In this document: positions 1-7,695 of the stretch, one piece after another
How the letters are laid out: every line of letters starts with the position of its first letter
How positions within the stretch are numbered: position 1 is the stretch's first letter
Virus genome (UHGV): UHGV-1564381
DNA: 12,068 nucleotides
Direction: 5' to 3' (one strand)
Source of the DNA: a virus
The notes under the pieces: model-generated
Databases searched by the model: none
Seen by the model: the letters and a program-made list of their open reading frames with translations, nothing else
Told to the model about the DNA's origin: nothing
Program-made: the position numbers and the translations under genes

Positions 1-120
1 GAAAGTCCTAGAAATAAAAGCGAGATCGTCGAAGGTGTTCCCTAAATAAATAATTAATTCCGGCTTTTAACCTTATATATTTATACGGGGTTGAATTGAA
101 AGAGTATTAAATGAGTGGCG

Positions 121-153
121 TGTAAAATAATAACCGGACTTAGCCGGTTATTA
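121..153 (-). terminator. Putative rho-independent terminator ending the leftward gene block
   Basis: Perfect 10-bp inverted repeat TAATAACCGG (128-137) / CCGGTTATTA (144-153) with a 6-nt loop, starting 14 nt past the stop of the 167..466 gene. On the minus strand the stem is followed directly by TTTTACA (plus 121-127), extending a U-rich 3' arm. Confidence 0.55.
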
Positions 154-166
154 CCCTTATAGGAAT

Positions 167-466
167 TTACATCTTTTTTGCATAGTTCCTGATTTCTTTT
201 ATTATATATTCCTGAAAACGCTCCGAGTTTTCGCATTTGTCTTTCGAAGGCTCATCAAGTCCCAACTTGCATCCCGCAACGGTCAGTCCATCTTGATATG
301 CAGCGCCTAAAGCCATGCTTAGGTCTAACATGCACAAATCGTAGTCTTCCGCCTTTGAACACAACTCTGTAGAGACACGTTGCACTCGTTCAATGCTATT
401 TTCTTGAGAAAATGCGGAAGAGCTAAAAATGAAAGTTAAGAATGTGAATGCTGCTACAGTTTTCAT
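167..466 (-). CDS. Small exported cysteine-containing protein, function unknown
   Basis: 99-aa ORF with ATG start. N-terminus MKTVAAFTFLTFIFSSSAFSQ looks like a Sec signal peptide (basic residue, hydrophobic core, small residues before the cut). Four Cys in the mature part. AGGA lies about 8 nt upstream of the ATG; 9-nt gap after the upstream gene. Confidence 0.6.
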   Translation of the reverse strand: MKTVAAFTFLTFIFSSSAFSQENSIERVQRVSTELCSKAEDYDLCMLDLSMALGAAYQDGLTVAGCKLGLDEPSKDKCENSERFQEYIIKEIRNYAKKM

Positions 467-475
467 ATCAATATC

Positions 476-997
476 CTAAAACGGTAAAATTCGTTCAACC
501 CAATCGAAGAAAACAAGAATTTTTCTGCCGTCTTTCAACTTAAGTGTGACTAGGCAGGCATCCACGCCATCTGACGTTCCCTCAATTTCGCGGCCGTCTG
601 CCATGTAGACCCTTATAGATTGGCCGTTTTGATAAGCCTTGCGACATATCTTAAAAAAGTCACGACGTGATGGCTGATTAACCATCTGTTCATTGTTTAG
701 CGTTAGTCGACCTGTGAATGAAGTGTCAACCTCTTCTATGCCCGACTCAATTGTGCTAATGCGTTCAAGAGGGAGCCTTATACGATTTGTGTTGCTAAGC
801 GGATCTGGTGTGAGGTTCAGCTTATTTCTTGCGCTCAATAGCCCGTAGACATACATGCAAAACACTTGGCCGTCTTCGAGAGTGACTCTTACAGGAAATT
901 TTGCACTCCGCCAGAAGAGCAAGGCGCGCTCAGCATGTTCGTAGTCTCGCGGCCAGACTTCAGCCGGTATGCCGTAGGTGATGTCCAATGTTCTCAT
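476..997 (-). CDS. Hypothetical protein, 173 aa
   Basis: Long ORF with ATG start whose start overlaps the stop of the upstream gene (ATGA on the minus strand at 994-997), indicating translational coupling. No motif recognised by eye. Confidence 0.55.
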   Translation of the reverse strand: MRTLDITYGIPAEVWPRDYEHAERALLFWRSAKFPVRVTLEDGQVFCMYVYGLLSARNKLNLTPDPLSNTNRIRLPLERISTIESGIEEVDTSFTGRLTLNNEQMVNQPSRRDFFKICRKAYQNGQSIRVYMADGREIEGTSDGVDACLVTLKLKDGRKILVFFDWVERILPF

Positions 998-1593
998 TCT
1001 GATACTCTTAGAGGTGTTTTCAGCAACCCAAATTTAAATTCTTTGTTACCAACGACAAAGAAGGGAACCTCAACATAGATTTTTTTATCGACGGATTTAG
1101 AGTTCGCTGTTTTCTGTATGTCACGAACGATACGTTTTGAGGTATTTTCATCGATAAACAATACCTTTCCACTTGTATTCCCTTCAGCCTTGGCGTAAGT
1201 AACGATAGGCTCTTCATTGCCAACCCTAATGTTTACTTGGCAACCTGTTGTAGCCATTTCATCACAGTAAAGTGTGCCGTCTTGAACTTCTAAAACAATT
1301 CCAGATGGCTTCATGGCTTCGTCAGAGCTTACATTAACGTTTTCTGGTACAGCGGTCCCGTTAATTTGCAACCGTAATCTTTCTTTTCCTCCATTAAGTA
1401 TTGTTTCTTCTGCGTTGTCTGAGAATCTGAACCAAACTGGCTGATTCAGACCTCGTGATTTGTATTCTACTACGTCTTCGGAGGTAAACATGCTGTACGT
1501 TTTTTGCATGTCAGAGACGAAATCTGATAATGCGTTGGCGGAAAACGCCGGGAGGCATATACAAGCAAGGAGTAACGAAAGTTTCATTTTCAT
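994..1593 (-). CDS. Exported protein with signal peptide (possibly lipoprotein), function unknown
   Basis: The ORF track opens at a TTG at 1608; the first in-frame ATG is at 1593 (another at 1587). From 1593 the N-terminus is MKMKLSLLLACICLPAFSANA: basic start, hydrophobic core, ANA cleavage-type site, and an LLAC that could alternatively be a lipobox. Start is 15 nt after the upstream stop. Confidence 0.55.
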   Translation of the reverse strand: MKMKLSLLLACICLPAFSANALSDFVSDMQKTYSMFTSEDVVEYKSRGLNQPVWFRFSDNAEETILNGGKERLRLQINGTAVPENVNVSSDEAMKPSGIVLEVQDGTLYCDEMATTGCQVNIRVGNEEPIVTYAKAEGNTSGKVLFIDENTSKRIVRDIQKTANSKSVDKKIYVEVPFFVVGNKEFKFGLLKTPLRVSE

Positions 1594-1608
1594 ATCATGA
1601 TAATCCAA

Positions 1609-2097
1609 TTATTTAACATCACACTTTCTAAGTTTTTCTATTTGTTCTAATTTTTCATGATCATCATTTAGATTTCCTTCGACTATCTCCGTTTCAAGTT
1701 TGCTGATTAGCATGTTAAGTGCGTTGTAGTTATTGCATTTTACTTTGTAGGCGTAGTATGACCTTGTCCCTGGTTTTTGTACACCCATATCATTAAAGTT
1801 AGAGCTTAAAGTATAACCTTCAAGTTCAACCCCTTTTATTGTTGGAAGAATTATATTAAATGGTTCTAATTTAAATGGGTAGATATAAATATGTGATATG
1901 AAGTACTCTTCTGAAGAGATTTTCTTCATGTCTTTTGTGATTGAAACTGAATATTTACGGTTCCGAGTGATATAAAATTTTGTACATTTGTACGGCTCTA
2001 AGTTGAATAGATAATATTTGTCTTTAAAAAGAGCATCTTTTCCATGTGATATTTTATGTCGTAAAGAGTTAATTATTTTGTTTATAGAAATACTCAT
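1609..2097 (-). CDS. Hypothetical protein, 162 aa, in AT-rich accessory DNA
   Basis: Uninterrupted ORF with ATG start; K/N/Y/I-rich product. Sampled GC is about 30%, against about 50-58% in the ParB/ABC operon. No recognisable motif. Confidence 0.5.
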   Translation of the reverse strand: MSISINKIINSLRHKISHGKDALFKDKYYLFNLEPYKCTKFYITRNRKYSVSITKDMKKISSEEYFISHIYIYPFKLEPFNIILPTIKGVELEGYTLSSNFNDMGVQKPGTRSYYAYKVKCNNYNALNMLISKLETEIVEGNLNDDHEKLEQIEKLRKCDVK

Positions 2098-2206
2098 CTA
2101 CAGTATCCGACCTTAGTTATCAATTGAAAAGCCTACAAATATCGTTCAGCCAATCAAGAAATTTTTTCAGCCGGAGGTGTGTACTTCAAAAAATGTGATG
2201 AATGTC

Positions 2207-2236
2207 ACATGCAGGTGCTCTCATACACCTGCATGT
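2207..2236. promoter_or_regulatory. Perfect 11-bp inverted repeat between two leftward genes (hairpin or operator)
   Basis: ACATGCAGGTG (2207-2217) and its exact reverse complement CACCTGCATGT (2226-2236) around an 8-nt loop, 6 nt past the stop of the 2243..2809 gene. On the minus strand a T6 run follows only after about 13 nt, so it is not a canonical intrinsic terminator. Confidence 0.3.
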
Positions 2237-2242
2237 AGACTA

Positions 2243-2809
2243 TTAATCATTCAATAATCTATATTTTCTTTTGATTAAATCTTCACCTTTTTTGGTGAAC
2301 ACAAAACCAAATTGCGATTTTTTGTTCAGCCTAAGGACTCTGTTATCCAACGCATCGGTTGATGGAATCAATGTTTGATCATCTATCCAATTAAGTAGCG
2401 TAAGAAAGTTCAGCAGCCTCAACGTTGTTGTGCGAAGCTCTTTCGATATATTTTCAATGCTGGCAATTCGTCTTTCTTTTTTCTCAGGTGGTACAGATAA
2501 TTGTTCTTGAGGTTTCGTGGGTAGATAATCAATTTCGTTTGCTGAATCGAATGATATGTGTGGCGTAATTTTGCTAAAAAAGCCTTTCGCTGACTCACTT
2601 GATAATAAACCAGACCTATTCATATCGTTTGTTATTCTGTACAGGAGTGGACTGTGTTTCATTTCAGGATAACGTTGATAAAAGTTAAGCAATTCAAAAG
2701 CAGCATTAGCACCAACAAGAAAATCAGAAGGATCGCTGACTTTCCAGAAAGAATGATTTTTCTTAGCGCCAGTGGTGTCAACAAATGATAATTCTTTTAA
2801 CCAACTCAT
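2243..2809 (-). CDS. Hypothetical protein, about 188 aa
   Basis: The ORF runs 2243..2842. I place the start at the internal ATG at 2809 (MSWLKEL...) because the minus strand reads GAAAGGAGCACATC-ATG there, a strong AAGGAG Shine-Dalgarno 6 nt upstream. The MMCSL... start at 2842 has none. GC is lower than the helicase and packaging genes. Confidence 0.55.
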   Translation of the reverse strand: MSWLKELSFVDTTGAKKNHSFWKVSDPSDFLVGANAAFELLNFYQRYPEMKHSPLLYRITNDMNRSGLLSSESAKGFFSKITPHISFDSANEIDYLPTKPQEQLSVPPEKKERRIASIENISKELRTTTLRLLNFLTLLNWIDDQTLIPSTDALDNRVLRLNKKSQFGFVFTKKGEDLIKRKYRLLND

Positions 2810-2874
2810 GATGTGCTCCTTTCTAACAAGTGAGCACATCATAGAATTAGTAGATAGGGGGTAAATATGAAATG

Positions 2875-3153
2875 TTACGGCAACCTGCTCAGTATTTCCT
2901 CTAGATCTTTTTTTGTCATATTGGAGTTCTCATAGATGCGCATGATTTTCTCACGCGTCTTAGCGGAAACCCCAACGGCAGATGTGACTTTGTCAAATTC
3001 AGCCATAGTCATCGTCTCCAGAATGGCATTGATAACTTCAGCCTTAGACATCTTGATTTTTTTCTCTTTGAGTTTTATTTGAAATTTTCCAAGTTTTTCA
3101 TTGGCCTTATCAGACAATGCCACTTGGCAATAAGTTGTTTTCTTTTCGCTCAT
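2875..3153 (-). CDS. Small putative DNA-binding protein (possibly ribbon-helix-helix-like)
   Basis: 92-aa ORF with ATG start 2 nt after the helicase stop. The N-terminal segment (TYCQVAL, then SDKANEKLGKF..., then MSKAEVINAILET) fits a strand-helix-helix pattern by eye only. Lys/Glu-rich. Confidence 0.4.
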   Translation of the reverse strand: MSEKKTTYCQVALSDKANEKLGKFQIKLKEKKIKMSKAEVINAILETMTMAEFDKVTSAVGVSAKTREKIMRIYENSNMTKKDLEEILSRLP

Positions 3154-3155
3154 AA

Positions 3156-4715
3156 CTAATCTCGTTTCAGAACTCCAAAATCGAATGCGCCATCAATAGG
3201 CAATACACCTTCTGCAAAGCCAGGTGTGGTGTCGATGATGTGTTTTCGCTCATAAGAGTGAGACAACAGGTATTTGTTGCTAATGTCAATGAAATCAGTG
3301 ATAAAACACACGTTTGCCTGATTTTTTTTTGCTCGTAAGCCACGACCGACACGCTGTCTCATTTCAACTTCTGCTTTCCCACCACCAGCAAGAATGACCG
3401 CGCCCACGCTTGGCACATCAACACCGACATCCAGAATAGTCGAGCCTATTAAAACATCTATTTCGCCAGACGCTAAACTGTTCAGCTTTGCTTGCCTTGT
3501 CGCCTGGTTCGATTCCCCATAAATGAAGTCAACTCTAAGGCCGGACTCCTTCATCATCTCCATCAGGATTTGCCCGTGGCGTTTAAGACGAACCAGAGTC
3601 ATACAATTGAGAGAATGTTGCTTATAGAGCAATGCTTCGCGCACAATGGCCTCGTTACGTCCCAAATTATACACGATCCCCAACTGATAAGCCTTTTGGT
3701 AGGCAGTGCTCATACCTACTCTAAAATTAAGGTGTTTGTTGGCAAGTTCCGCCTTGATTCTGACCTCGTCTGGCTTGTAAGCAACTTTATGATAAAGGAA
3801 GTACGGTTTTGCCAGAATGCCTCGATCAATCAGGTACTTTTCTGTGACTTTAATTTCAATTCGCCCGGCCACCGCCATCAGGCGCATGTTGGCTTCCGTC
3901 GAATCCTTCATGAACGGCGTGGCTGTAAGCGCCAGACGATAGTCTGCGTTCACACATAATCTGGCGATGTCATAGAAATTTGAGCCTGAAGACTCATGCG
4001 CCTCTTCCAGAATAAGAAGAGAGACACTTGAAAGGAAGCGTTTCACCAACTCCCGACGTTTGAGGTGGTAGCTTTTCTTATCTGGTGTTGCATCGCGTGG
4101 TGGTTCTTCGAGGAAACTTGCAAGAGTTTGAACTGTAGCGACGTTGATATGTCGTGATACCTGGAACTCACCCGAGCCAATGACTCCAACCTTTTGGTCT
4201 TTTAACCACGGTTCGCCATTTTCGGCGCGGTAGTCGATGGATCTCTGGAAGTTTTCGGCCATTTGAAACATCAGAACAGAGCGGGTTGTTAAAAATAATG
4301 TCATTCGACCGATACGTGCAGCTGCTTTGCAGGCAACGTTAGATTTCCCGCCACCAGTAGCGATCTGCGCAATCATCATTCCCTCTCGAACCAGTGTTTC
4401 CACAGTCTGATCCTGATATGCATAATCAGGATTGTATGGGAATGGGTTAACCGCCGGATTTGGTTTACCAAGCGCCGGGGCTTTGTCTTTGCGGATATGA
4501 ACACATTTGATGCCCGCCTTGTTCAAGTTCGCCGCTACAGGCTTGGCAAAGCCAGCAGGGAACGAGTTTTTACTCCAGTTGAACATCGTGCTTGTGCCCT
4601 TCCAGTCGCCAGTCTCGACTTCGTAGCTCAACATTTGCTGCACCAGTTGCTTTACCTTGTCATCTGCGCCAGAAATAAGCGCATTTACTGCGTTAGATAC
4701 AATCCGAACAGTCAT
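3156..4715 (-). CDS. Superfamily-2 DNA/RNA helicase (DEAD/DEAH-box, type III restriction Res-like ATPase core)
   Basis: 519-aa ORF with ATG start and upstream AAGGAAAGAGG. Motifs read in the translation: Walker A QIATGGGKS, motif II LLILEEAHE, motif III LTATPF, C-terminal helicase domain with motif VI QRVGRGLR. About 120 aa of N-terminal sequence precede the motor core. Confidence 0.85.
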   Translation of the reverse strand: MTVRIVSNAVNALISGADDKVKQLVQQMLSYEVETGDWKGTSTMFNWSKNSFPAGFAKPVAANLNKAGIKCVHIRKDKAPALGKPNPAVNPFPYNPDYAYQDQTVETLVREGMMIAQIATGGGKSNVACKAAARIGRMTLFLTTRSVLMFQMAENFQRSIDYRAENGEPWLKDQKVGVIGSGEFQVSRHINVATVQTLASFLEEPPRDATPDKKSYHLKRRELVKRFLSSVSLLILEEAHESSGSNFYDIARLCVNADYRLALTATPFMKDSTEANMRLMAVAGRIEIKVTEKYLIDRGILAKPYFLYHKVAYKPDEVRIKAELANKHLNFRVGMSTAYQKAYQLGIVYNLGRNEAIVREALLYKQHSLNCMTLVRLKRHGQILMEMMKESGLRVDFIYGESNQATRQAKLNSLASGEIDVLIGSTILDVGVDVPSVGAVILAGGGKAEVEMRQRVGRGLRAKKNQANVCFITDFIDISNKYLLSHSYERKHIIDTTPGFAEGVLPIDGAFDFGVLKRD

Positions 4716-4797
4716 AAACCTCTTTCCTTAGTGCCTTTTGTATGTTATTTGGCTATTATAATAAGTAAGTGATTACTTAGTGGATTGTAGCAATAAA
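4716..4797. promoter_or_regulatory. Divergent intergenic region between helicase and ParB-like operon; candidate bidirectional promoter
   Basis: 82-bp AT-rich spacer between divergent starts. Contains the palindromic octamer ATTATAAT (4755-4762), which reads as a consensus TATAAT -10 on both strands. No good -35 hexamer found at 16-18 bp spacing on either strand. Confidence 0.3.
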
Positions 4798-5478
4798 ATG
4801 GATGTAAAAATCACGATTTTGCAGGTTGATGTTGCCAACCTTCGCCCGAATACCTGGAACACCAATTCGGTTGGTGCGCAGAATTTTGAAAAACTGAAAG
4901 GTTCTATCGAAAAATTGGGCTTTTTTAAGCCAATTTTGGCTCGTGAACTTGAAGATGGATTTTTTGAAATCCTCGGCGGTGAACATCGCTGGCGTGCTGC
5001 TATTGAGCAAGGAATTTCAACGGTTCCGGTGCTTTCTGTGGGCAAAATTAGCGATGTCGTAGCTAAACAGATGTCACTGGTGGACAACGAGCGATACGGT
5101 GAAGACGACCAAATCGCATTGCAACGCTTCATTGAAGAAATTCAGTCAGAACTTGACTATCAACTGTCTGAAATCGCTCCGTATGACGACGAAATCTCGA
5201 TGGTTTTAGCAAAAGAGGCGGCAATCGACCTTGAAGCACTGGAGGCGTTGTCTCGTGGTAGTGATGAGCCTGTCGATACCGACAAACGAGAGAAAACCGA
5301 ACGTGTGGGTGCGGAACATCAGACCATGCGCTTCAAAGTAACTTTCGATGCGTCAGATCGTGTTGCAGAAACCATAAAAAACATCATCAAAGAGCAGGCT
5401 ATTAACACCGGTAATGAAATGGAGAACGCTGGTGAGGCTCTGGTGTGGCTGGTCGACTACTACAAGGAGCGTATGTAA
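4798..5478 (+). CDS. ParB/Srx-fold (ParB N-terminal domain-like) protein, paralog 1
   Basis: N-terminal ITILQVDVANLRPNTWNTN followed by ILGGEHRWRAAIEQGISTVPV matches the ParB/sulfiredoxin GxxRxxA signature. C-terminal half is strongly acidic. The ORF track opens at GTG 4780; ATG 4798 is chosen by analogy with the paralog's N-terminus. Stop TAA overlaps the next start (TAATG). Confidence 0.75.
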   Translation: MDVKITILQVDVANLRPNTWNTNSVGAQNFEKLKGSIEKLGFFKPILARELEDGFFEILGGEHRWRAAIEQGISTVPVLSVGKISDVVAKQMSLVDNERYGEDDQIALQRFIEEIQSELDYQLSEIAPYDDEISMVLAKEAAIDLEALEALSRGSDEPVDTDKREKTERVGAEHQTMRFKVTFDASDRVAETIKNIIKEQAINTGNEMENAGEALVWLVDYYKERM

Positions 5479-6146
5479 TGACCAAAAAGTTTGAAATCGT
5501 ATATCGCGACCCGGCAGATCTTATTCCCTATGAGATGAATGCCAAAAAGCATGATGAACAGCAGATCAGAGATCTGGCCGCAGCCATTAAAAAGCGCGGA
5601 TTTGACCAGCCAATTACGGTCGATAAGAACGACGTAATTATTACTGGCCACGGCCGCCGTGAGGCTGCAATTTTTGCTGGACTTGAGCGCGTACCGGTTA
5701 TTGTTCGCGATGATCTCAGTGATGACGAGGTTCGTGCGAAGCGCCTTGAAGATAACCGACTTGCCAGCATTGATTACGATGCAATTAAGCTACAGAAAGA
5801 GCTTGAGTCGCTTGTTCTGGACGATATCGAGGTTTTCGGCTTTGAAGAGCGTGAGTTGAATGTTCTCGTTGGCAGTATGACAGAAGAAATGGACACCGAC
5901 TCGCTAGTTATCGATCTTGGCGAAGAAACTAAACGACAGAAGGATGAACACACCGAGATCAGTCGTGAAGTTGCAGCGGAAGAAGTACGTGTTGTCGACG
6001 TATTGGGCTTTAAAACGCTCCCTGCTGGCTCTGCCATTGTTGTTGGTGATTTGCTTGCCCATATGGAAGAAATGACGGGAGAAAGCGGGGTAGACGCATT
6101 TGTGGCATATGCGGAGAAGATCTCTTCCGGGGAGATGGCTGCATGA
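5478..6146 (+). CDS. ParB/Srx-fold (ParB N-terminal domain-like) protein, paralog 2
   Basis: ATG at 5478 preceded by AGGAG (5464-5468); the track's GTG 5445 start is rejected. Motif ITGHGRREAAIFAGLERVPV fits the ParB/Srx signature. Same architecture as the upstream gene: ParB-like N-domain plus acidic C-terminal half. ATGA overlap with the downstream ATPase. Confidence 0.75.
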   Translation: MTKKFEIVYRDPADLIPYEMNAKKHDEQQIRDLAAAIKKRGFDQPITVDKNDVIITGHGRREAAIFAGLERVPVIVRDDLSDDEVRAKRLEDNRLASIDYDAIKLQKELESLVLDDIEVFGFEERELNVLVGSMTEEMDTDSLVIDLGEETKRQKDEHTEISREVAAEEVRVVDVLGFKTLPAGSAIVVGDLLAHMEEMTGESGVDAFVAYAEKISSGEMAA

Positions 6147-6808
6147 GCAAATACATCATCAACGTATCGTTTCAGACACGCGTAAATAAAACCACGCGCA
6201 CGTTGGAAATCGCTGAGTCGTTCGGGCTTGGCCTGGACGAAAAAGAGTGGACGCTTTACGACAATCTGGAGCTGGAAGTGAAGCAGGGCGATGTGGTGTA
6301 CATCACCGGCCAATCCGGTTCCGGCAAATCCGTTGTGCTGCGCGAGTTGCAACGACAGATGAAGGATGAAGGGCTGTCTGTAGCCTCCATCGATGATTTT
6401 ACCTTCGATAATGAGGTTAACGTCATCGATCAGTTGGGCAAAACGACCAGTGATGCGCTTGGGTTGTTATCTATGGCTGGTCTGAACGATGCATATCTGT
6501 TTGTTCGCAAGCCTTCTGAAATGTCAGACGGCCAGAAATATCGTCTCAAGATTGCCAAACTGATTGAGTCAGGCGCTAAAGTATGGGCTGCTGACGAGTT
6601 CGGCGCTGTTCTCGACCGTGTAACCGCTCAGGTTGTGGCGTCTAACCTCCAGCGTGCCGCTCGAAAGGTTGGTGCGACGGTAATGGTGGCGACGACTCAC
6701 GAAGACCTGAAGAACGCGCTGCGCCCTGATATGCAGATCACCAAGCACTACAAAGAACGCGTGAAGGTGGAATATCACAATGGTAGTCATGATGAGGTTC
6801 ATTTATGA
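6143..6808 (+). CDS. Stand-alone ABC-type ATPase (nucleotide-binding domain only)
   Basis: 221 aa. Walker A GQSGSGKS, ABC signature-like SDGQKYRLKIAKL, Walker B VWAADEF, D-loop AVLD, H-loop ATTHED, all in canonical order and spacing. GGGGAG RBS upstream. ATGA overlaps at both ends (6143-6146 and 6805-6808). Confidence 0.8.
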   Translation: MSKYIINVSFQTRVNKTTRTLEIAESFGLGLDEKEWTLYDNLELEVKQGDVVYITGQSGSGKSVVLRELQRQMKDEGLSVASIDDFTFDNEVNVIDQLGKTTSDALGLLSMAGLNDAYLFVRKPSEMSDGQKYRLKIAKLIESGAKVWAADEFGAVLDRVTAQVVASNLQRAARKVGATVMVATTHEDLKNALRPDMQITKHYKERVKVEYHNGSHDEVHL

Positions 6809-7695
6809 CGGACATCATCATTAAACGCTACCGCCCTGAAGAGTTTCCGCGTCATCTGGACTTTCTGGAGCGAATGACTGTCACAAAGGGAACTGTAGAG
6901 GACTGGCACGCTCTTAAGTCGCTTCACTACAAAACAGACGGCAAACCTTTCGCGCCAACATACTATCGCTGCGAACTGGATGACCGTCTGGTGGGCGTCG
7001 TGGTTATGGCTTACCCGAAACTTCTGCTGGCACCTCGCCATCGCATGTTTCCTAAGTTGAAACCAACCACCAATACCACCGTGGCTAACCAGTACTGGGG
7101 CCGGTACGTGAATAACAACTTTGCGGTGATCAGCCGCTCAGTTGTGGATACTCAGTACCGTGGCGTAGGCGTCTCTTATCGAATGATTAACCTAGTTAGC
7201 AGGATGCATGACCGGCCAATCATTGAGATCCAGTCATCGATGAGCAAATACAATCCCTTCGCCATGAAAGCAGGGTTTAAGTTCATCCGCCCTGAGCGAC
7301 CGAAGAGCTATGAAAGTGCACTGCGTGTGTTCCAGCGCCATTTCCGCTCCGACCCGGGTGATAACGAGGCGATCGTCAAAGAGTTGTTCGCTATGAGCGA
7401 GTCTCGTCGTCGCCGTGCGCTGCGCGATTTGGTGGCGGACTACCATAAGAACAGTTCCCTGGCAAAAGCTGGGCGGAATCGTGGCACGACGATTCAGGAC
7501 ATTGCCGACAGTCTGGTGGACGAGGCCAGCATTGTGAAGCTGCTCAAGGACATTCACAACCTGAGCTTTACGTCTCCGTTGTATGGTGTGTACCGAAACC
7601 CTGACTTTGGCCGTCGACTGCCTGACACGCTGCCACTGCTGGCATTCGACAAACAACCTTTGGATAAACCGTTAGAAATTGCTTTACCGGCATAA
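6805..7695 (+). CDS. GNAT-like acyltransferase-fold protein with a roughly 110-aa C-terminal extension
   Basis: 296 aa. VVDTQYRGVGVSYRMINLV resembles GNAT motif A (R-x-x-G-x-G/A acyl-CoA pyrophosphate loop); NPFAMKAGFKF resembles motif B. The C-terminal third is Arg-rich and matches nothing I recognise. Fold assignment is by eye. Confidence 0.55.
   Translation: MTDIIIKRYRPEEFPRHLDFLERMTVTKGTVEDWHALKSLHYKTDGKPFAPTYYRCELDDRLVGVVVMAYPKLLLAPRHRMFPKLKPTTNTTVANQYWGRYVNNNFAVISRSVVDTQYRGVGVSYRMINLVSRMHDRPIIEIQSSMSKYNPFAMKAGFKFIRPERPKSYESALRVFQRHFRSDPGDNEAIVKELFAMSESRRRRALRDLVADYHKNSSLAKAGRNRGTTIQDIADSLVDEASIVKLLKDIHNLSFTSPLYGVYRNPDFGRRLPDTLPLLAFDKQPLDKPLEIALPA

Follow-up and report, generated by a model that had tools for sequence, protein, structure and literature searches.

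What are two small, AT-rich genes doing between a conserved helicase gene and a gene related to the flagellin repressor FljA, and how did they come to be there? The question is raised by a stretch of 12,068 nucleotides of the virus genome UHGV-1564381 (the whole of the analyzed stretch is called the window hereafter), in which every gene in positions 1-4715 lies on the minus strand. An initial annotation, made from the letters of the window, had read the two genes as moron-like accessory genes inserted downstream of the helicase gene. By comparison with phage and plasmid records, the window belongs to an SSU5-like phage-plasmid of Escherichia coli: it is 97-98% identical to the Escherichia SSU5-group 'phage' or plasmid records CMS-2020a, PhiR41_1 and Cyrano, and about 80% identical to SSU5 relatives from Klebsiella and Salmonella. 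The 1.7 kb around the two genes is matched by 293 plasmids of the PLSDB collection, nearly all of them non-mobilizable replicons of about 110 kb. In the direction of transcription the helicase gene is followed by p92, by the two genes in question, which we call gpB and gpA, and by p204, the FljA-like gene and p99. Two conclusions are firmly supported: positions 997-2875 are a hypervariable, AT-rich accessory ('moron') slot of this phage-plasmid, filled with exchangeable cassettes, and gpA and gpB encode real proteins of two small, uncharacterized families.

The slot was surveyed in 31 IMG/VR loci, fetched via p92, and in phage and plasmid records, and the flanking genes were located in each. 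p92 was present in all 31 loci, in SSU5 and in a Klebsiella relative (52-100% amino acid identity), and the FljA-like gene was found in every SSU5-like relative examined. The p92 stop (2875) and the FljA-like gene (997) thus bound the slot, and the interval between the p92 stop and the start of the FljA-like gene took the form of 22 distinct sequences of 498-2940 bp. It varies while the helicase is at least 98.5% identical across the E. coli set, and among relatives at that level of helicase identity we counted at least ten gene arrangements. Those seen over the whole survey were a lipoprotein gene alone (in SSU5 itself and 11 loci); p204 alone; gpB, gpA and p204 (the window and six loci); gpB with other cargo; a gpB scar followed by a gene of 180 codons and a lipoprotein gene; gpB with a gene of 191 codons and genes for secreted proteins (PhiR41_1); gpB with a gene of 377 codons; gpB with tandem genes of 326 and 181 codons; a gpA scar, consisting of the first 81 nucleotides only, with p204; and a Klebsiella version with an IS630 insertion. 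In the Klebsiella pneumoniae plasmid NZ_CP134044.1 (locus L057, 4190-5475), the slot holds a gpB-type gene, an open reading frame (ORF) of 72 codons and an IS630-family transposase gene; therefore, the slot accepts insertion sequences too. Short slots (0.5-0.7 kb) carry a single lipoprotein gene and have a GC content of 45-51%, and long slots one of 35-39%. Among the approximately 293 SSU5-like plasmids of PLSDB, gpA occurs in 23 and a gpB-like gene in 179, so that both genes are accessory and not core, as had been proposed. The variable region downstream of the helicase gene is, however, wider than the two genes first singled out: it includes p204, a gene whose presence varies among relatives and whose product has a signal-peptide-like N-terminus.

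The compositional break that had drawn attention to the locus is both real and local. The GC contents first given from sampling were borne out, at 29.3% over 1609-2100 and 36.0% over 2243-2842; gpA as a whole has 29.2%, the helicase gene 47.2% and the ParB/ABC block 49.5%, with sliding windows of up to 57%. At third codon positions (GC3) the figures are 27% for gpA, 31% for gpB and 44-61% for the backbone genes; p92 has a GC content of only 38.7%, yet its GC3 is 46%. For a genome-wide reference we used a complete, assembled relative (NZ_CP079892.1, 110,545 bp), which is 99.8% identical over the region and has a GC content of 46.1%, with a standard deviation of 3.8% across 500-bp windows. The lowest 500-bp window of that genome (30.0%) falls inside gpA, and the block from p92 to gpA (34.6%) is among the lowest 0.05% of windows of equal length. 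We conclude that the anomaly is local and not general to the early region; the sliding GC content of the whole genome contradicts a low value throughout that region.

Both ORFs stand as first described, with 162 codons at 2097..1609 (gpA) and 188 codons at 2809..2243 (gpB), on the minus strand. A reading of 199 codons from 2842 is the mechanical maximum, and gpB is the 188-residue protein that starts at 2809. The PGAP annotation in RefSeq calls gpA as a protein of 106 residues from the internal Met57 (RefSeq relatives L035-L039). However, full-length homologues with 53-57% identity are found in Salmonella and Citrobacter, and in these homologues the first 56 codons are conserved, with a ratio of non-synonymous to synonymous substitution (dN/dS) of about 0.3. 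Because dN/dS for gpA is 0.34 at greater distance, with the first 56 codons included, the 162-codon frame is real, the 106-residue call is too short and gpA is a constrained protein. Among close alleles, the corresponding ratio for polymorphism (pN/pS) is 0.86 for gpA, as compared with 0.05 for the helicase and 0.17 for p204. For gpB, dN/dS is 0.12 and pN/pS is 0.42. Both products are basic (isoelectric points of 9.15 for gpA and 9.34 for gpB); gpA is predicted to be soluble, and neither has a transmembrane segment. In gpB, a variable linker separates two regions that are conserved. Homologues of gpB in the 179 plasmids fall into 79 from Escherichia, at 90% identity or more, and about 100 from Klebsiella, Enterobacter and others, at about 40%; they lie in this slot in every case checked. 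If the ORFs were wrongly called genes, or AT-rich filler with no function, this would fit their lack of a database function, the short PGAP call, the frameshifts seen in several gpB clusters and the deletion scars. This view is largely refuted by the purifying selection on both genes, by the full-length homologues of the same length and in the same order in Salmonella and Citrobacter, and by the conservation of the regulatory elements around the genes, and we find it very hard to credit.

The initial annotation had further suggested that the two genes were acquired separately. This was not demonstrated. The Salmonella plasmid CP053410 keeps the whole order helicase-p92-gpB-gpA-p204-FljA-like, with gpB at 42% and gpA at 53% identity, and the gpB-gpA pair must therefore be old in the SSU5 supergroup; gpB of the Salmonella relatives, about 41-42% identical, has the same length and order. 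Moreover, much of the variation is deletion that left scars. In two loci (L022 and L033) a scar marks the place of gpB, and in L022 its hairpin, start region and last codons remain around the deleted body; in L059, the first 81 nucleotides of gpA are what is left of that gene. What holds of the claim is that the two are separate units with independent turnover and a more recent horizontal exchange than the backbone. gpB occurs without a gpA-like gene in L013, L008 and L059, and a gpA-like gene without gpB in L022, L033, L045 and L049. An obligate two-gene or toxin-antitoxin system made of gpB and gpA was considered and rejected, as the genes occur apart and a hairpin and a promoter-like module lie between them. 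Synonymous diversity among 12 carriers amounts to 0.13 for the helicase gene and for p204 but to only 0.015-0.03 for p92, gpB and gpA, and a polymorphism map shows the same trough over p92-gpB-gpA. Between the window and L051, the synonymous distance (dS) is 1.56 for the helicase gene, 1.0 for gpB and 0.27 for gpA. The firmly supported conclusion is that the cassette has been exchanged horizontally more recently than the backbone, and that gpB and gpA have been lost independently.

The genes of 180, 191 and 377 codons found at the position of gpA encode distant homologues of it, as judged by pairwise BLASTP, profile links and a joint alignment in which the motifs YIY..., [FY]P[FY], L.SN[FL] and YG[FY]S are shared. 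The stand-alone alleles are intact, encode proteins of 153-192 residues and show about 20% identity between types. In PHROGs the gpA type is spread over families 25050, 31250 and 29155, and gpB belongs to family 13473; every one of these families is listed as of 'unknown function'. When 1.84 billion cluster representatives were searched with a profile of the family, only 11 clusters were returned, among which P0023, a eukaryotic repeat protein, was set aside as a spurious profile match. Where the context of a member could be read, it was the same slot of an SSU5-like contig, often directly upstream of the FljA-like gene. The exception is P0025, of 153 residues (L047, 6001-6462, in a contig of Logan accession SRR23468721), which is encoded in a P1-like element with a C1 repressor, a Cre-like integrase and a Ref-like nuclease; its gene follows closely behind the ref-like gene, and the corresponding region of P1 carries mat and a type III restriction system. 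A GIY-YIG-like reading of the YIYV...FYPY motif was rejected, since the alignment lacks the Arg, Glu and Asn residues that are conserved in that fold.

Three alleles extend past the point at which the stand-alone proteins end and run into a C-terminal HNH domain: L005 (377 residues), P0021 (348 residues) and L053 (326 residues). The domain is matched by the Pfam HNH model and has an intact CxxC...HH...N...CxxCH motif. It is matched best by the McrA-type mREase_IV model of PADLOC (E = 3e-5) and by EcoKMcrA in the Protein Data Bank (PDB entry 6ghc; E = 0.013), in both cases weakly and only over the motif region. The proteins of L005 and L053 are 57% identical overall, but inspection shows C-terminal halves that are nearly the same and N-terminal domains that differ greatly. 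P0021 and L005 share only 40% identity over their full length, and the fused architecture is therefore old. All three genes adjoin a gpB-type gene, with no cognate methyltransferase gene next to them. gpA itself has no HNH domain by Pfam or PADLOC, and is the exact counterpart of the N-terminal domain of the fused proteins, the stand-alone proteins ending at the domain boundary. The gpA-type domain thus behaves as an exchangeable, fast-diverging module ahead of a constant effector, and gpA of the window is the module alone. In L053 (1266-3043, in a contig of Logan accession SRR10800393), the HNH-fused gene of 326 codons is followed by a stand-alone gene of 181 codons, and the two alleles are of different N-domain subtypes.

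The existence of HNH alleles invites the view that gpA is a decayed remnant, the DNA-binding domain, of a free-standing HNH homing endonuclease. An AT-rich gene lodged between conserved phage genes, present in some relatives and absent from others, would be in keeping with this, as would the reduced diversity around the cassette, which resembles a co-conversion tract. However, the stand-alone alleles are ancient and under purifying selection, and no nuclease remnants follow them. The alleles swap behind a shared promoter (see below), with no contrast of occupied and empty target sites, and relatives that lack gpA have a deletion scar (L059) or other cargo in place of an intact target site. In addition, the HNH domain is C-terminal and closest to the McrA type. 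Homing-endonuclease decay thus strikes us as improbable.

Upstream of gpA lies a promoter-like module composed of TGTGACATTCATCACA (2209..2194), which resembles the CRP consensus, and then CCTCCGGCTGAAAAAA, followed by a putative -35 element, TTGATT (2157..2152), a spacer of 16 nucleotides and a putative -10 element, TAGGCT (2135..2130). Class I CRP-dependent promoters of E. coli have the consensus TGTGA-N6-TCACA, and TGTGACATTCATCACA matches both half-sites perfectly. The core GTGA-N8-TCAC is kept before every gpA-type allele that was aligned (10 alleles and further lineages), with half-sites that are exact or have one change at the outermost base and with a spacer that varies. Homology between different gpA-type alleles ends at about 2129, just past the -10 element, so that the module is conserved even where the proteins behind it share about 20% identity; L053 has two copies, one for each allele. 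The argument for the CRP-like site rests on this conservation; one such site alone is no more than chance would give in 12 kb. Both the promoter activity of the module and its control by CRP are deduced from the sequence, and TGTGACATTCATCACA could instead be bound by a regulator of the phage-plasmid.

Behind the module, gpA and p204 follow each other with zero gap, the p204 stop and the FljA-like start overlap by 4 nucleotides, and the FljA-like gene and p99 are 9 nucleotides apart; the FljA-like gene thus shares a predicted operon with gpA and p204. Its product is homologous to the phase-1 flagellin repressor of Salmonella, and its presence on a phage-plasmid suggests that motility or the expression of flagellin is subject to lysogenic conversion. 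A gpA-like protein could then be a partner or regulator of the FljA-like function, in a lysogenic-conversion operon that remodels flagellar or surface expression with the help of secreted and lipoprotein cargo. Three things speak for such a role: the contiguity of gpA, p204, the FljA-like gene and p99 on one strand behind one conserved promoter-like module with a CRP-type site; the position of gpA-like genes directly upstream of the Flag1_repress gene in L045, L049 and L050, once with an overlap of one nucleotide; and the secreted proteins and lipoproteins among the slot neighbors, which are typical of conversion or exclusion genes. Conversely, the HNH fusion in three alleles has no obvious place in flagellin regulation, one family member resides in the P1-like element with no FljA-like gene nearby, and many SSU5-like elements have the FljA-like gene without a gpA-like gene. 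We consider a partnership with FljA unlikely, if less so than the other rival explanations.

gpB is flanked by two perfect 11-bp hairpins; a search of the flanks of the cassette for repeats, direct or inverted, that might be integration sites returned only these two. The AAGGAG motif noted before is indeed present, 6 nucleotides upstream of the ATG at 2809, but the 'strong' ribosome-binding site (RBS) that it was taken for is base-paired within the first hairpin. The extended structure, with a folding energy of -28.5 kcal/mol (z = -7.5), pairs both the Shine-Dalgarno (SD) sequence and the AUG of gpB. This stem is kept in lineages in which gpB is only 41% identical, with one double change from G:C to C:G and two changes to G:U wobble pairs, which are compatible with an action in the sense RNA, and it is retained in L022 despite the deletion of gpB. 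A weak promoter-like site (TTTACC-16-TATGAT, 2865..2838) overlaps the 5' arm of the stem, and a transcript from it would be without that arm; the site is poorly conserved in distant lineages. The stem-loop may serve to keep read-through transcripts of the helicase operon from being translated, by fold-back control, or it may be an operator or a site for RNase III.

The second hairpin, which the initial annotation had placed between gpB and the next gene, is real (-27.3 kcal/mol, z = -5.4). Over six lineages 97% of the aligned cells are paired and 6 of the 11 pairs have changed on both sides, and not one of 500 shuffles did as well; in L022, where gpB is deleted, the hairpin is degenerate. No U-tract adjoins it, and it was not called in the terminator scan. 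Probably it forms the 3' end of the gpB unit, as a terminator or a stabilizer. On the proposal of an independently regulated cassette the signals are mixed: a conserved promoter-like module precedes gpA and a covarying hairpin follows gpB, but the scans returned neither a strong promoter nor a canonical terminator. A resemblance of the C-terminal region of gpB to KilA-C/ANT antirepressor domains remains an unsupported lead; a Pfam scan of six members at E ≤ 10 did not return that model.

We propose that gpA, in this exchange slot, is a recognition module without an effector, acting in conflicts between mobile elements. In the first unit of the slot, the RBS and start codon of gpB are locked in a stable hairpin, such that read-through from the helicase operon would be poorly translated, and the unit ends in the covarying hairpin. 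The second unit would comprise gpA, p204, the FljA-like gene and p99, with gpA first, behind a conserved and probably activator-dependent promoter with a CRP-type site. The divergence of the N-terminal domain, down to about 20% identity between types, next to a near-identical HNH domain is the pattern that a target-recognition module under conflict-driven diversification would be expected to leave. Each HNH allele would then be a nuclease in one polypeptide, similar in plan to the type IV restriction enzymes, and the family would serve to defend against or exclude the DNA of incoming phages or rival plasmids. gpA would bind targets of the kind that the HNH alleles bind, most probably nucleic acid, but would leave them uncut. 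Taken as a whole, this reading seems to us somewhat better than an even bet. We have moderate confidence in its central part, namely that the gpA-type domain is a recognition module, that the HNH alleles are nucleases, that the family takes part in mobile-element conflicts and that gpA binds without cutting.

Several observations weigh against this proposal. The high pN/pS of gpA comes from only 23 segregating sites, and relaxed constraint could explain it. The gpA-type alignment contains one invariant proline and no invariant charged residue, so that binding is a guess. Searches with single proteins and with profiles against Pfam, NCBIfam, PADLOC and PDB sequences made no assignment for gpA or gpB, and a comparison by hhalign of the gpA-family profile with the sensor domain of EcoKMcrA (NEco) gave a probability of 0.3%. 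The fused alleles are rare, the one of 377 residues occurring in only one PLSDB plasmid, and since gpA has no nuclease, the analogy with nucleases is silent on its role. As for the promoter, the CRP-like site in the window alone is not above chance (one found, 0.51 expected), its deduced distance to the start, about -78, does not coincide with a canonical position of class I promoters, and the promoter scan made no call, as expected from the poor -10 element.

The individual searches gave little more. In Pfam, gpA matched only YmgB, at 17 bits and below threshold, and in PADLOC gpB matched only SspC (E = 0.028, below threshold); both were taken as noise. PADLOC-DB 2.0 held no match for gpA or for other stand-alone members of its family, and the N-terminal domain of the family matched no Pfam sensor domain (SRA, EVE/PUA or wH) and no PDB sequence. 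The AlphaFold models were poor (pLDDT, the predicted local confidence, of 47.8 and 40.5), and fold searches with them gave no assignment. Thus, the idea of an island of defense, anti-defense or exclusion genes in a replication region does not hold in the sense of genes that PADLOC, Pfam or NCBIfam would recognize. Such a role is suggested by analogy, which the HNH-fused sister alleles make somewhat better grounded. The reading of the genes as a moron-like cassette is upheld by the deviant composition, the variable presence and the separate units with their own flanking signals, and gained no assignment from the searches for remote homology and structure.

gpA, gpB or both could also act in counter-defense and shield the phage-plasmid against nucleases of the host or of rivals, possibly with the nuclease-less domain occupying the target and so blocking the HNH alleles of rivals. 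Anti-defense genes are common in phage-plasmids (bioRxiv 10.1101/2025.09.12.675607), the proteins are small, fast-evolving and confined to a hotspot, and the end of the stand-alone forms coincides with the domain boundary in the fused alleles, one of which stands in tandem with a stand-alone allele in L053. These two alleles, however, being of different subtypes, make no obvious cognate pair; gpA and gpB are basic, and not acidic DNA mimics; and the place of gpA in a prophage-type operon behind a CRP-like promoter would not suit early injected or lytic functions. A shield of this kind appears to us an unlikely explanation. By weight, the rivals run from a partner of FljA through the counter-defense shield and homing-endonuclease decay to non-functional ORFs. 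A bolder form of our own proposal, which we regard as a doubtful conjecture, is that the gpA-like domain is an undescribed, hypervariable target-recognition domain of phage-plasmids, in which the HNH fusions, as a new family of single-polypeptide nucleases of SSU5-like and P1-like elements, would serve as weapons against incoming phages or rival plasmids and the stand-alone forms as shields (blockers or antidotes), the polymorphism being maintained by cassette exchange behind the shared promoter.

Features of the locus in the window, in the order of transcription
Feature	Position	Strand	Remarks
SF2 (superfamily 2) helicase gene	4715..3156	minus	
p92, 92 residues	2875..3153	minus	phrog_1466; starts 2 nucleotides past the helicase stop; upstream (left) border of the slot
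Stem-loop over SD and AUG of gpB	2799..2851	minus	perfect 11-bp core, 2808-2818/2832-2842
gpB, 188 residues	2243..2809	minus	phrog_13473
Hairpin 3' of gpB	2207..2236	minus	perfect 11 bp, 2207-2217/2226-2236
Conserved promoter-like module of gpA	2130..2209	minus	
gpA, 162 residues	1609..2097	minus	phrog_25050
p204, 204 residues	994..1608	minus	phrog_18942; secreted/lipoprotein-like; also slot cargo
FljA-like gene	476..997	minus	Pfam Flag1_repress, E = 6e-69; downstream (right) border of the slot
p99, secreted, 99 residues	167..466	minus	

Some observations concern the surroundings of the slot. p99 shows a weak similarity (E = 2.5e-5) to a PHROG family labeled 'valyl tRNA synthetase modifier' and is carried by only some relatives. 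On the plus strand (4780-7695), divergent from the helicase gene, lies an operon for two ParB-N-domain proteins, an ABC-type ATPase and a protein of 296 residues that is annotated in relatives as an ATPase fused to an acyltransferase-like domain; SSU5 and some relatives have an extra small gene between the ATPase gene and the gene for the 296-residue protein. Elsewhere in NZ_CP079892.1, a type I restriction-modification system at 84040-90108 has an hsdS region that is another low-GC island, and a gene at 4413-6752 is annotated as a LAGLIDADG family homing endonuclease. These genes indicate further accessory or selfish insertions in that genome.

Clinical E. coli, Shigella, Salmonella Typhi and Klebsiella commonly carry SSU5-like phage-plasmids, whose accessory content has been screened only with libraries of known systems, which are blind at this locus. 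A 2025 survey of SSU5-group elements that used a DefenseFinder screen reported other systems, located elsewhere, and in the literature searched we found no description of this slot or of the gpA and gpB families. What is defined here is a compact and precisely bounded exchange slot with a shared promoter-like module and two uncharacterized families that are nearly confined to it. Three natural alleles with a nuclease and several without, at one locus, provide a handle on a new recognition domain in mobile-element conflicts, and interest in the locus would rise if the recognition-domain or the 'weapon versus shield' reading were true. In any case, the locus is a clean example of moron turnover, and it corrects the annotation of gpA as a 106-residue protein by PGAP.

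As a kind, morons and diversity hotspots are well known. The novelty here lies in what the slot contains, namely two families without annotation, of which one has been shuffled onto an HNH nuclease. The slot is like other hotspots in its low GC content, its variable presence between conserved neighbors, its own flanking signals, its horizontal exchange and its cargo of secreted proteins and lipoproteins. It is unlike those in that its 3' hairpin is without a U-tract and in that the gpB-gpA pair, being old in the SSU5 supergroup, is not a recent one-off insertion. DNA-mimic anti-restriction proteins of the Ocr/ArdA type were considered as a model for gpA and gpB and rejected on account of the basic isoelectric points and the lack of a Pfam match.

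The regulatory elements have their own counterparts. With class I CRP promoters the module of gpA shares perfect half-sites, conservation, a free spacer and a place upstream of a poor -10 element of the activator-dependent type; its spacing would fall between the canonical -71.5 and -82.5. In the fold-back inhibition of IS10 and IS50, read-through transcripts pair the RBS of the transposase gene, and only transcripts from the promoter of the element itself are translated. The stem of gpB, which pairs the SD sequence and the AUG and overlaps the promoter-like site with its 5' arm, is similar; unlike in those elements, the promoter-like site is weak and poorly conserved, and the palindrome could be an operator or an RNase III site.

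A sensor domain joined to an HNH nuclease is the paradigm of modification-dependent restriction enzymes (PMC6182155, PMC7145662, PMC7897488), and type IV endonucleases of this architecture include NEco-HNH, SRA-HNH, EVE-HNH and wH-HNH proteins (PMC6182155, PMC7145662, PMC7897488, PMC11037411). gpA of the window differs from EcoKMcrA-type enzymes in having no nuclease, and in its sister alleles the similarity of the HNH domain is weak and limited to the motif region. The alleles of L005, P0021 and L053, however, are like these enzymes in being prophage-borne and in combining, on one polypeptide, an N-terminal domain that varies with a zinc-finger HNH domain at the C-terminus.

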